This document shows positions 11,268-49,925 of a stretch of 64,000 bases of DNA, piece after piece; position 1 is the stretch's first letter; every line of letters starts with the position of its first letter. The notes under the pieces were generated by a model. That model did no database searches. It saw nothing but the letters and a program-made list of their open reading frames with translations, and was not told the DNA's origin. Both the position numbers and the translations under genes were made by a program. Origin of the DNA: a virus; the IMG/VR virus record IMGVR_UViG_3300020731_000015, positions 11,271 through 75,270 of that record, one strand, 5' to 3'.

Positions 11268-11278
11268 AAAGGAACACA

Positions 11279-46308: not shown

Positions 46309-46902
46309 GTGACAAGCAACCCTGTAGTAATGCGCAGTGTTATTCGTAGTATCTGGCAAGACTTATGTGATGGTGTCGAAGAGATGGGCGCGAAAGCGGC
46401 CTCGGCGGTGGCTCTAGGGCTAGCGATTATCTTCGCCGTGAGCGGGCTACAACCGATAGCCCAAGCAAGCACCCCAACTAGGGCAATCACCCCTATAGTC
46501 GTAAACGCTAAAGCGGTGTCTAGCCCCTATGCCAACTTCCCCAAACTAATCAACTATGAGATTGGTGATTCCAAGTGGCGAACTTGGACTTGGGATAAGA
46601 CCGCCTATAGGCCGTCTTTGGTTGACCCCACACGAGCCCTACCGCTCAAGGCCCAAGTCACCTTTGCCTGTATCCGATACGCCGAAAGCCGTAATCACCC
46701 CAACGATACGAACCAGCAATCGGGTGCAGAGGGCCTTTACCAATTCCTGCCCTACCTATGGCAATATGGGGCAAAAGCCCTCGGTATCAAGGCCGTTAGT
46801 GCCAATAACGCCACCCCCGAACAGCAGAGTGCCGTAGCCGTTTGGTATTACAAACGAAACGCTGGCTTCTACCCCGAATGGGTGGATGGCTGCACGGGCT
46901 AA
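46309..46902 (+). CDS. Secreted lytic transglycosylase, Rpf-like (start uncertain, possibly 46384)
   Basis: Signal-like segment; CIRYAES...SGAEGLYQF...W...ATPEQQ..VA. Confidence 0.75.
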   Translation: MTSNPVVMRSVIRSIWQDLCDGVEEMGAKAASAVALGLAIIFAVSGLQPIAQASTPTRAITPIVVNAKAVSSPYANFPKLINYEIGDSKWRTWTWDKTAYRPSLVDPTRALPLKAQVTFACIRYAESRNHPNDTNQQSGAEGLYQFLPYLWQYGAKALGIKAVSANNATPEQQSAVAVWYYKRNAGFYPEWVDGCTG

Positions 46903-46961
46903 GTCGAAAGTCGCTATAGTGGATGCCGAAAGGCGTTCCTTTCCAAATCATCAGTATCAGC

Positions 46962-46996: not shown

Positions 46997-47042
46997 GTTT
47001 ATTGGCTTGATTTGCCCCACCACATCAGTTATCATTAGTCCT

Positions 47043-47801
47043 ATGGCTAACGAAACCAAACAGATGACTGCGGTTTCACTATTTGCGGGCGTGGGCGGTT
47101 TCGACTTAGCACTAGAGCGCAACGGAGTGAATGTCGTAGCGGCAGTAGAAATTGACAAACACGCACAAGCAGTGTTGGCAAAGCAGTTCCCAAATACAAA
47201 ACTATTCAACGATGTCACGGAGGTATCGGGTGAGCAACTTATTTCAGCAGGATTTGACCCAAGAAACGGAATCCTTGTCGGTGGATTCCCCTGCCAAGAC
47301 CTTTCCGTTGCCGGAAGACGTGCAGGGCTGGCTGGAAAGAGAAGCGGCCTCTTCTACGAAGTCGCGCGCATCATCGAAGAACTCCAACCGGAGTGGTTCG
47401 TCCTCGAAAATGTCCCCGGCCTTTTATCAAGTCAGCAGGGAGCAGATATGGGAGCAGTTGTCGGAACGCTGGTTGACCTCGGGTACGGCGTCAGTTGGCG
47501 GGTGTTGGATGCTCAATACTTCGGAGTTCCCCAGCGGCGGCGTCGTGTCTTCATCGTTGGCCGACGTTCTGGAGACTGGAGAAGTACCGCAAAAGTATTA
47601 TTTGAGCGCGAAAGCGTGTGCGGGGATTCTGACCAGAGCCGAGCGACGGGGGAAGAAACTACCCGAACCGCTTTTACAAGCATTGAAAGCACAAGCGGCG
47701 GATTACAAGCCGGAGTAGCAAAGGGGGGAGTGTCCGTCACAGATGAGAACACGACCAACCCTTTTACAAGTCAGGATTTGCTGAATACTCAACAGGTGTA
47801 G
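47043..47801 (+). CDS. C5-cytosine DNA methyltransferase, catalytic part (motifs I-VIII only)
   Basis: SLFAGVGGF, GGFPCQD, ENVPG, QRRRRVF; leaderless TTGATT-N17-TATCAT-N7-ATG. Confidence 0.9.
   Translation: MANETKQMTAVSLFAGVGGFDLALERNGVNVVAAVEIDKHAQAVLAKQFPNTKLFNDVTEVSGEQLISAGFDPRNGILVGGFPCQDLSVAGRRAGLAGKRSGLFYEVARIIEELQPEWFVLENVPGLLSSQQGADMGAVVGTLVDLGYGVSWRVLDAQYFGVPQRRRRVFIVGRRSGDWRSTAKVLFERESVCGDSDQSRATGEETTRTAFTSIESTSGGLQAGVAKGGVSVTDENTTNPFTSQDLLNTQQV
47152..47718 (+). CDS. Alternative-frame peptide nested in the MTase gene, resembling the M.EcoHK31I beta polypeptide (start uncertain)
   Basis: SEFPSGGVVSSSLADVLETGEVPQKYYLSAKACAGILTRAERRGKKLPEPLLQAL in the +1 frame. Confidence 0.65.
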   Translation: MTNTHKQCWQSSSQIQNYSTMSRRYRVSNLFQQDLTQETESLSVDSPAKTFPLPEDVQGWLEREAASSTKSRASSKNSNRSGSSSKMSPAFYQVSREQIWEQLSERWLTSGTASVGGCWMLNTSEFPSGGVVSSSLADVLETGEVPQKYYLSAKACAGILTRAERRGKKLPEPLLQALKAQAADYKPE

Positions 47802-48091
47802 GCACACTACGCGCCTCATCTTCGCAAGAAGACCACATTCTTGTTGAGCAAATCGGCTTTTCCGGTAGCAACTTTAACGGTTATGCTGAAACGCCCCAAA
47901 TGGCTACCCTCGTGGCGACCGATAGCAAGAGAAGCGACAAGGTAGTTGTAGAGCGCCGAGTCAACTCTATGTATGGTGAAAAGATTGCCCCTACCCTCAC
48001 GGCAAGTGGCAACGACTACATCGGGCTAGGCGTTCCTATGGTTTCCGTTGATACGCAAGAGCCAGTATTCGGTGCTTTTGAGGAACTATGA
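47762..48091 (+). CDS. MTase target-recognition-domain repeats, reachable by -1 frameshift or from ATG 47900
   Basis: Open frame FYKSGFAEYSTGVGTLRA...MATLVA...IAPTLTA begins at CCCTTTT (47759-65). Confidence 0.55.
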   Translation, partial: FYKSGFAEYSTGVGTLRASSSQEDHILVEQIGFSGSNFNGYAETPQMATLVATDSKRSDKVVVERRVNSMYGEKIAPTLTASGNDYIGLGVPMVSVDTQEPVFGAFEEL

Positions 48092-49140
48092 GCGAGAACG
48101 ACCCAATCGTTATCCCAATCCAAGACGGTCGGGGTATGAATCAGAAGCAAAACGGATTTGGAGTTGGTGAAGAGGGCGACCCTGCTTACACACTCACAGC
48201 CGTTGGCGGTGCTTCGGTAGCCGTTGCCTTTGATGAATACAACTTCTCGATTAGCGATACTCACCACACACTTCGGGCCGGAACTCCACAATCCACTGGC
48301 GTTATCCAGCCTGTCGTATTTGAGCCGGGTGCTATGAGCCGTATTGAGGGTCACGACCCTGCTGAAATAGCCCCAACCCTACGAGCCCATATGGGAGACA
48401 ATCAGTTGGCACTCTTTTACGAAGAAGAACTACCAGCAACCCCTACGGGGAATCTAACCCCTTGGCCAGAGATGGGTCAGCCAAATATGGTTTATCGCAC
48501 CGATACCGTGACTAGGACAGTCGATAACAATCGCCACCTAATCCTCACGCAAGCGGGGCAAGAAACGCCAACTGCTGAAAACAATTCAGAGACAGGTTGC
48601 CTAACCCCTTGGCCCGAAATGCCCCAGCCCTACAGAGTTTACGGAACAGAAACGGTGACAAGAACTGTGGACAACAACCGACACAACATACTTACGACTA
48701 TTCCTATTGACATCAGAAACGCAACACGACCACCAGACGGAGAACAAGGTATGGGTATTGGCGACAACGGCGACCCCTCAACAACAATCACCACAGGCCG
48801 AGTGCCGGGTGTATTCGCAGAGGGCGAGGAATCATTCTCGGTCTATGAGAACCAGCGTTCAGAGGTTCGTGAGCAAACGGTATTTAACGCCCTAACGCTC
48901 GGTGGCGGAAAGCCCGGTCAGGGATACCCCACAATCAGAACTCGCTCGGTAGTTCGCCGCCTCACTCCTATCGAGTGCGAGCGCCTACAGGGATTCCCAG
49001 ACGACCACACGCTTCTCCGTGCTGATGGCAAGGAACAAGCCAATGTCCATCGCTACAAGCAGATGGGTAATGCCGTTGCTGTTCCTGTTGTTGAGTGGGT
49101 AATCGCCGGAATCGTTGAGGTTCACAACAAAGATGAGTGA
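48088..49140 (+). CDS. MTase C-terminal module 1 (several TRDs plus motifs IX-X)
   Basis: Several TL-type repeats; RRLTPIECERLQGFPD; RYKQMGNAVAVPVV. Confidence 0.85.
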   Translation: MSENDPIVIPIQDGRGMNQKQNGFGVGEEGDPAYTLTAVGGASVAVAFDEYNFSISDTHHTLRAGTPQSTGVIQPVVFEPGAMSRIEGHDPAEIAPTLRAHMGDNQLALFYEEELPATPTGNLTPWPEMGQPNMVYRTDTVTRTVDNNRHLILTQAGQETPTAENNSETGCLTPWPEMPQPYRVYGTETVTRTVDNNRHNILTTIPIDIRNATRPPDGEQGMGIGDNGDPSTTITTGRVPGVFAEGEESFSVYENQRSEVREQTVFNALTLGGGKPGQGYPTIRTRSVVRRLTPIECERLQGFPDDHTLLRADGKEQANVHRYKQMGNAVAVPVVEWVIAGIVEVHNKDE

Positions 49141-49534
49141 GAATAAAGACGAAATGGTGATGCCGACCCTATTGGCTGGTATGGGCGATTCTGCCGTAGG
49201 AACGACCCAAGATGCCTACATACTCAAGTATCTTGCCTATTCGATTAGGGAAGATGCCAAAGCAAATACCTTTAGCGCCACACCCGTAGATGTTGCTGGC
49301 ACTATTTCAGCACATCAACCAAGCGTTCAGAGCCACCACGCTCAAGTGTTCGCTATCCACCCAAAGCCACGCCGTCTTCTACCCGAAGAGTGCGAGCAAC
49401 TACAAGGCTTCCCTATCGGGTGGACAGACAACGGCCAAATTGACCGATACCGATTTAAGCAAATGGGCAACGCAGTCGCCGTGCCAGTCGTTGATTGGGT
49501 CATCAAAGGAATCGTAGATGTCCACAACCGATAA
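49133..49534 (+). CDS. MTase C-terminal module 2
   Basis: RRLLPEECEQLQGFP; RFKQMGNAVAVPVV. Confidence 0.85.
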   Translation: MSENKDEMVMPTLLAGMGDSAVGTTQDAYILKYLAYSIREDAKANTFSATPVDVAGTISAHQPSVQSHHAQVFAIHPKPRRLLPEECEQLQGFPIGWTDNGQIDRYRFKQMGNAVAVPVVDWVIKGIVDVHNR

Positions 49535-49925
49535 CGACAGTCTTTATGTGACCAATCGTAGGACTGGCGCTGTAGATGAACACAAGGGCGTTTCACCAAC
49601 CTTGTTGGCGTTTATGGGAACCGGTGGCGGAAATGTTCCAATTCTCGGCGGCCAACACCCACACGCAGCCGTAGGAGAGGGCGTTTCACCAACTCTTACT
49701 GCCGCTTCAGGTGGCGGTGGCGGTCACACGCCAGTAATCGCTAGTGAACTATCGGTTCGCCGTTTGACACCAGAAGAGTGCGAAGCCCTACAAGGTTTTC
49801 CTCGTGGCTGGACAGAAATCAACTCCACCACCAACCGATACAAGGAAATGGGAAATGCCGTAGCCGTGCCTGTGGTGAATTGGATTATTGAGGGAATCGT
49901 AAAGGTTCACAATGAGCGTAAGTAG
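49518..49925 (+). CDS. MTase C-terminal module 3
   Basis: Two copies of GVSPTL..GGG; RRLTPEECEALQGFP; RYKEMGNAVAVPVV. Confidence 0.85.
   Translation: MSTTDNDSLYVTNRRTGAVDEHKGVSPTLLAFMGTGGGNVPILGGQHPHAAVGEGVSPTLTAASGGGGGHTPVIASELSVRRLTPEECEALQGFPRGWTEINSTTNRYKEMGNAVAVPVVNWIIEGIVKVHNERK

Follow-up and report, generated by a model that had tools for sequence, protein, structure and literature searches.

A split phage C5 cytosine methyltransferase locus with one catalytic half and several candidate specificity subunits

We analysed a window of 64,000 nucleotides (nt), positions 11,271 to 75,270 of the IMG/VR virus record IMGVR_UViG_3300020731_000015, a 75-kb viral record that is approximately 60% complete. 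Within this window a C5 cytosine methyltransferase locus consists of one open reading frame (ORF) with the catalytic motifs I to VIII (the N-half) followed by three ORFs (modules A, B and C), each of which encodes its own set of target recognition domain (TRD)-like cassettes and its own motifs IX-X (Table 1). The whole 75-kb record contains one N-half and three IX-X ends. In addition, an ORF is nested in the +1 frame of the N-half gene, and a -1-frame open stretch (the extension) lies between the N-half and module A. The best reading of this locus, and in our view a fairly probable one, is a single catalytic core with interchangeable specificity subunits that provides broad anti-restriction methylation. 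To our knowledge no C5 methyltransferase with several such beta-like chains has been described, and our literature search returned nothing on C5 enzymes with multiple C subunits, nor on the nested gene in phages.

Our analysis revealed that the match of the N-half to PF00145 (E 1.8e-57) covers only the first part of the 324 profile positions. Motifs I (LFAGVGGF), IV (GFPCQD, with the catalytic Cys in PCQ), VI (ENVPGL) and VIII (QRRRRVF) could be read directly in this order, followed by a short tail, and the ORF stops at 47801 without motif IX or X. The usual monomeric form, with all ten motifs on one polypeptide, was not found: motifs IX-X are confined to other ORFs in other frames, where they follow a variable region three times, once per separate ORF. 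These downstream ORFs matched PF00145 over approximately positions 243-323 only (the last ~55-80 positions, E 1e-10 to 1e-12), and the tail of module A aligned to residues 268-317 of M.HhaI. The layout is that of the M.AquI type, in which one gene encodes motifs I-VIII with part of the variable region and the adjacent gene encodes the rest with motifs IX-X. A first-pass annotation of this DNA had proposed a catalytic ORF with motifs I-VIII only, three downstream ORFs with differing TRD-like cassettes and IX-X ends of their own, and duplicated LTPWPEM and GVSPT units, all of which our searches and alignments bore out. Its ORF coordinates held as described apart from the start of module B, which is most likely ATG 49133 and not TTG 49115, and perhaps that of the N-half, which may truly begin at ATG 47064 judging from the alignment with relatives. 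A promoter-like sequence (TTGATT-17-TATCAT, 47007-47035) ends 7 nt before ATG 47043, where there is no Shine-Dalgarno sequence. The N-half mRNA could be leaderless; such promoter-like sites occur at chance-level number.

Table 1. Coordinates of features at the split methyltransferase locus, numbered within the window.
Feature	Position	Strand	Basis
N-half (catalytic subunit), C5 cytosine methyltransferase	47043..47801	+	PF00145 positions 1-167, TIGR00675, phrog_116/363
Nested +1-frame ORF, 188 codons, inside the N-half gene	47152..47718	+	Relatives, entropy, AlphaFold2 (AF2)
-1-frame open stretch (extension) with three to four putative TRD cassettes (e.g. GFAEYSTGVGTLRAS, ATLVATDSKRSDKVVV, IAPTLTASGNDY)	47747..48091	+	Translation
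C CCT TTT heptamer, candidate -1 slip from the N-half frame into the extension frame	47759..47765	+	Sequence
Module A, 350 amino acids (aa)	48088..49140	+	PF00145 positions 269-322; motifs IX-X at 48949-49137
A/B junction, insertion point of module D in L167	49120..49140	+	blastn, three-way DNA alignment of window and L167
Module B, 133 aa from ATG 49133	49133..49534	+	PF00145 positions 243-322
Module C, 135 aa	49518..49925	+	PF00145 positions 271-323

In all three modules the cassettes precede motifs IX-X. Module A encodes about seven of them, including a doubled LTPWPEM...TVTRTVDNNRH unit (a 96-nt repeat, 48454-48549 and 48601-48696, with 71% identity) and two PI.D.R...GDP..T.T units, module B encodes two (MPTLLAGMG... 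and YSIREDAKANTFSAT...SHQPSVQSHHAQ), and in module C a GVSPTL...GGG cassette occurs twice (copies at 49585 and 49678). The locus as a whole contains approximately 15 repeated cassettes spread over four to five ORFs, and no single polypeptide bears them all. Their putative identity as TRDs follows from the sequence pattern, a T-L-type core that is often followed by a glycine run; T-L/GGG-type cores of this kind resemble the TRD core of M.HhaI. On the DNA level, the segments encoding motif IX and motif X form three direct repeats with 66-76% identity and a spacing of ~400 nt. The start codon of each module overlaps the stop of the preceding ORF, with the start of B overlapping the end of A and the start of C overlapping the end of B by 17 nt. 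Shine-Dalgarno-like sequences were detected at modules A and C (GAGGA, 5 nt upstream of the ATG of A), and no terminator-like site was seen on the + strand between the modules. These overlaps, the Shine-Dalgarno-like sequences and the lack of terminator-like sites support the reading in which the single N-half would assemble with each of the co-expressed modules.

In protein sequence, the motif IX-X tails of the three modules share ~65% identity, and their proportion of synonymous differences (pS) is saturated at 0.61-0.84, as opposed to a proportion of nonsynonymous differences (pN) of ~0.25. Apart from the physical B/C overlap, the longest exact word that the modules have in common is at most 12 nt. 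Saturated synonymous sites and the lack of longer common words indicate that the tails are old, selected copies and not an assembly artefact. All paralogous tails of this lineage end in a private GIV.VHN sequence, a common ending that would fit docking to one partner. When the tails were compared directly (49049-49127, 49449-49527 and 49834-49912), pS between A and B was 0.84 and thus above the ~0.75 expected at saturation. Selection against recombination of tandem copies may account for this excess, although ~50 codons are too small a sample.

For comparison, approximately 265 related loci were gathered by four routes, starting from the nested-ORF family (L007-L086), from the first 80 residues of the N-half (L089-L166), from module C searched against metagenomes (L167-L191) and from the N-half searched against one genome per prokaryote species (L199-L278). 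Every locus was scanned in all stop-to-stop frames with hidden Markov models for N-half, IX-X tail and nested ORF. A search of IMG/VR with exact N-half peptide patterns returned no close relatives, and module A aligned against IMG/VR returned solely the contig of L168, which is the same contig as L192.

Among these loci, L167 lies on a 125-kb metagenome contig that is 99% identical to the window and matches it in N-half, nested ORF, extension and all three modules. In addition, it contains an intact fourth module D (114 aa), with a TRD-like part of its own and motifs IX-X, that is placed precisely between A and B. The crossover lies within a GTTCAC that both sequences have where the motif X tail ends, and on either side the reading frames and the coupling of stop and start by overlap are intact. 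L168 is a divergent relative in which the order extension-A-B-C is kept, with orthologs sharing 79% (A), 85% (B) and 67% (C) protein identity with those of the window. The main difference between the orthologs is that whole cassettes are present or missing: L168 has a single LTPWPEM unit where the window has two, one PI.D.R...GDP unit fewer, and two cassettes that are absent from the window. Relative to L168, the ratio of nonsynonymous to synonymous substitution rates (dN/dS) was 0.06 for module A, 0.06 for module B and 0.16 for the extension; for module C, with its saturated synonymous sites, dN was 0.29. Strong purifying selection acts on at least modules A and B. There are thus three C chains per N-half in the window, four in L167 and three in L168, which departs from the one-to-one pairing of the M.AquI type. 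More than one C module per N-half was found only in these three loci, which represent one lineage among the ~265.

The split itself is a property of the wider clade. In loci whose N-half is 60-70% identical to that of the window, the enzyme almost always consists of an N ORF that ends after motif VIII and a single C ORF in a different frame. This arrangement was seen in ~30 of the closest IMG/VR loci, where the C ORF usually has its own ATG, GTG or TTG, and more remote relatives as well as cellular homologs have single-chain enzymes. In Mycobacterium phage Dove the two parts are annotated as two methyltransferase genes, 107 and 108. The frame of the C ORF relative to the N ORF varies among relatives (+1, -1 or 0), and most C ORFs start with ATG, GTG or TTG just before a conserved head, WFTKSRRAQ..DYETW. 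Varying frames together with own starts argue for separate initiation and not for frameshifting, and a programmed frameshift joining N and C as a clade-wide rule was therefore rejected.

C subunits and N-subunit tails throughout the clade are mosaics of cassettes of 25-40 aa that differ in order and number between phages. Several cassettes of the window belong to this common repertoire, among them YSIREDAKANTFSAT...SHQPSVQSHHAQ of module B, PIQDGR...GDPAYTL and DTHHTLRAGT.QSTGV of module A, and the ..R....PTL.A.MGTGGGN.P type of module C. A cassette of module B also occurs in L008 and L011. The reuse of cassettes in other combinations by phages of the clade fits a multispecific enzyme. Two complete tandem C5 methyltransferase genes, each with a match to the nested ORF, were observed on another IMG/VR contig (L135, 2977-5631), which is another route to several specificities.

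The -1-frame extension between the N-half and module A has its first start codon at ATG 47900, inside a cassette, and its stop overlaps the ATG of module A (ATGA). Its cassette types stand in frame in the N-subunit tails of relatives, and the homology to these tail cassettes begins exactly at the CCCTTTT heptamer. Heptamer and extension are arranged identically in L167. The predicted RNA fold downstream of the heptamer is weak and only mildly better than that of shuffled sequences (z -2.3). Going by the sequence, the heptamer is a candidate for a programmed -1 frameshift or else for a tolerated frameshift mutation.

The nested ORF, read in another frame, does not extend beyond the methyltransferase gene at either end and is under selection. 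It has 368 database relatives of ~155 aa and is open in the same frame in Dove, in Rctr41k and in all 26 of the 26 closest loci picked via the frame-0 protein, and it is missing from 59 of the 80 cellular relatives that share motifs IV-VIII. The third-position entropy of frame 0 falls from ~1.65 bits ahead of the overlap to 0.49 directly behind motif VIII, where the first-position entropy rises to 1.48, which means that the +1 frame is the stronger constraint in that stretch. In the AF2 model only the last ~50 residues (~47556-47706) fold, into three helices, with a predicted local distance difference test score (pLDDT) of >82-97 only for residues ~140-185. Three nucleotide changes separate the window from L167 in the part encoding this fold; all three are silent in the +1 frame and two of the three alter frame 0. 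The nested protein is a candidate for an extra subunit, and both it and the -1 extension probably belong to the enzyme. Comparison of its C-terminus with the IX-X tails by hhalign (probability 0.1) led us to reject it as a motif IX paralog; motif IX is found on the C modules. Foldseek against PDB and a PDB sequence profile search gave no matches for the nested protein.

The nested gene is conserved from mycobacteriophages to P1-like phage-plasmids and is almost never annotated. A tblastn search with the nested protein identified 527 plasmids, mostly P1-like phage-plasmids. In one of them, the E. coli P1-like plasmid NZ_CP009051.1 (L087), the match at 2501-2758 lies in the +1 frame of a gene annotated as 'Dam family' (Dmt). 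In two further loci (L039, 1139-2068, and L113, 3182-3940) the nested +1 ORF reads through into a TRD cassette and motifs IX-X with no stop in between, and these may be natural fusions of the nested protein with a C-half. Several split relatives (e.g. L024 and L014) have a single stop between the nested ORF and a C ORF in the same frame.

Natural two-chain C5 enzymes have been described, namely M.AquI and M.EcoHK31I, and complementation of N- and C-terminal fragments of monomeric enzymes is established (PMC3404938, PMC2836561). In M.AquI from Agmenellum quadruplicatum, motifs IX-X and the remainder of the variable region reside on the smaller chain, whose gene lies next to that of the larger one (PMC3404938). 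This enzyme has a single beta chain with a single target (CYCGRG), whereas here three or four beta-like chains, each with several cassettes, stand behind one alpha-like chain, and the locus is phage-borne with no restriction partner seen nearby. In M.EcoHK31I a different frame of the alpha gene encodes the beta chain, whose N-terminal part is reported to be dispensable or unstructured (PMC2836561). Similarly, an ORF is nested in the methyltransferase gene of the window, and the N-terminal part of its product looks dispensable or unstructured. The beta chain of M.EcoHK31I is said to supply motif IX, whereas in the window motif IX is located in the C modules and the nested protein has no profile similarity to IX-X.

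The multispecific C5 enzymes of Bacillus phages (SPR, phi3T, rho11s and H2) contain several short TRDs in a row between motifs VIII and IX and protect against several restriction enzymes (Trautner et al. 1996, as cited in PMC12707154). These enzymes are single polypeptides with three or four TRDs of ~40-50 aa, whereas the ~15 TRD-like cassettes found here are 25-40 aa long and are spread over the tail or extension of the N-half and three to four C subunits. The closest annotated relatives are cluster J-like mycobacteriophages (e.g. Dove genes 107/108 and Omega), with 72% DNA identity over motifs IV-VIII. These phages share the split after motif VIII and the nested ORF with the window but have only one small C gene (116 aa), as opposed to three in the window and four in the sister strain. 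A functional analogy is offered by Type I restriction-modification, where one catalytic partner is combined with alternative hsdS specificity genes. Type I systems belong to the N6-adenine class, and their hsdS alternatives are usually swapped one at a time by site-specific inversion. The genes of the window, in contrast, are tandem direct genes that are apparently co-expressed, with no recombinase nearby. In its logic the locus combines the split of M.AquI after motif VIII with the tandem arrangement of TRDs, here putative, of the multispecific phage enzymes. What sets it apart from both is the presence of three to four alternative C subunits per N-half.

According to the reading we favour, a phage C5 methyltransferase that is naturally split after motif VIII would be produced from a single N-half co-expressed with three alternative C subunits, or four in the sister strain, each of them a string of short target-recognition cassettes that ends in its own motifs IX-X. 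By analogy with M.AquI alpha and beta, each C subunit would dock on the same N-half, resulting in three or four holoenzymes with different target sets. The phage DNA would thereby be methylated at many sites and might evade many host restriction enzymes. Modules and single cassettes are gained and lost by recombination at conserved ends, so that the repertoire can evolve fast. We infer that the chains assemble physically, that each cassette confers one specificity and that the enzyme acts in anti-restriction. Outside the window (G000:C1:5906-6928) the phage has the gene of a further DNA methyltransferase, of the N6/N4 amino type (PF01555, E 4e-50), which fits a DNA-protection strategy. Interchangeable subunits had already been suggested by the first-pass annotation; architecture, conservation and cassette repertoire agree with this suggestion, which was nevertheless incomplete with regard to the nested gene, the -1 extension and the occurrence of three or four modules. 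A more elaborate version, which we put forward tentatively as possible rather than probable, is a toolkit in which the N-half occurs in two isoforms (through the -1 slip) together with the nested chain and is promiscuous with three or four co-expressed TRD/IX-X subunits. With ~15 cassettes it would reach at least ten specificities, and whole subunits, gained and lost between near-identical strains, would be the unit of an arms race with the restriction systems of the host.

Several observations weigh against interchangeable subunits. Neither the N-half nor module B has a clear Shine-Dalgarno sequence. When module C was modelled alone with AF2, its TRD part had a pLDDT <50 and showed no TRD fold, and the helical IX-X part was moderately confident. 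The modules of the window lack the WFTKSRRAQ...DYETW head that is common to most C subunits of the clade and that could be a docking element; Dove gp108 likewise lacks it. As relatives place up to ~seven cassettes in one C subunit, the need for several subunits is not obvious. Finally, the cassettes are shorter than the 40-50-aa TRDs of Bacillus phages, and a one-to-one relation of cassette and target is a guess.

As the main rival we consider that some modules go unused, i.e. that only one module works with the N-half and the others are passengers, either C-halves captured recently from other phages or a store of cassettes that serves recombination and not expression. Strains that are 99% identical differ in module number, so one module is dispensable, each tail of the window resembles tails of other phages about as closely as it resembles its neighbours, and arrays are as rare as described above. 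Against passengers speak the dN/dS of ~0.06 of A and B relative to a near-saturated relative, the conserved order, starts and stops, and the coupling of every module's own ATG to the stop before it. In a silent store of cassettes, starts and complete ends are normally missing. We therefore regard the passenger explanation as unlikely. It is more unlikely still that a single chain is produced by recoding, with a -1 slip at CCCTTTT into the extension and another into module A, B and C being separate or unused. The heptamer is in phase and coincides with the onset of the tail-cassette homology, the extension has no start before 47900 yet is under selection, and N-half, extension and module A lie in successive -1 frames. 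However, the junction between extension and module A has no slippery site and module A has an ATG with GAGGA, the RNA structure downstream of the heptamer is weak, a plain frameshift mutation in the T run would look alike, and the varying frames and own starts of the relatives point to separate initiation.

We consider it very improbable that the modules serve a host C5 methyltransferase or some other partner, which they would retarget or block, instead of the N-half of the phage. Nothing direct speaks for such a partner, and the missing head of other clade C subunits is the feature that would be in line with it. On the other hand, the modules form a tight gene string directly behind the only N-half, relatives with a single C ORF show the same N-C pairing, and all tails have the lineage-specific ending. 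The last alternative, decay of a single gene or a chimera assembled from strain variants, had been named by the first-pass annotation as what would overturn its proposal. The contig is metagenomic, and cassettes that relatives have in frame with the N-half tail are out of frame with it here. However, all ORFs are intact and A and B evolve under purifying selection (dN/dS 0.06 relative to L168), the independent 125-kb contig has the same layout at 99% identity, and there are no common words >12 nt that could mislead an assembler. On the evidence of L167 and of the absence of such words we rejected misassembly and decay, which appear next to impossible.

The locus extends the rare class of multi-chain C5 methyltransferases represented by M.AquI and M.EcoHK31I. 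If one half indeed serves several subunits, its logic would resemble Type I hsdS switching more than it resembles any C5 enzyme described so far. Gain or loss of a whole module was directly seen between two 99%-identical genomes, and cassette shuffling provides a second route to changes in protection. Split methyltransferases underlie tools for targeted methylation (PMC2836561, PMC3404938). Orthogonal natural C-halves for one N-half and very small cassettes would, if true, be starting material for engineering. Within 2.9 kb the locus also combines a nested gene with coupled genes that overlap and a frameshift isoform that may exist, which makes it an example of dense overlapping information.

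The gene upstream of the locus (46309-46902) also differs between the window and L167. Its N-terminal half is common to both, and the C-terminal domain is different (46534-46903 in the window versus 942-1235 in L167), with an SLT-like motif (AESRN...GLYQF) in the window and an Rpf-like motif (CETNGNW) in L167. The Rpf-like motif in the sister strain hints at an actinobacterial host.

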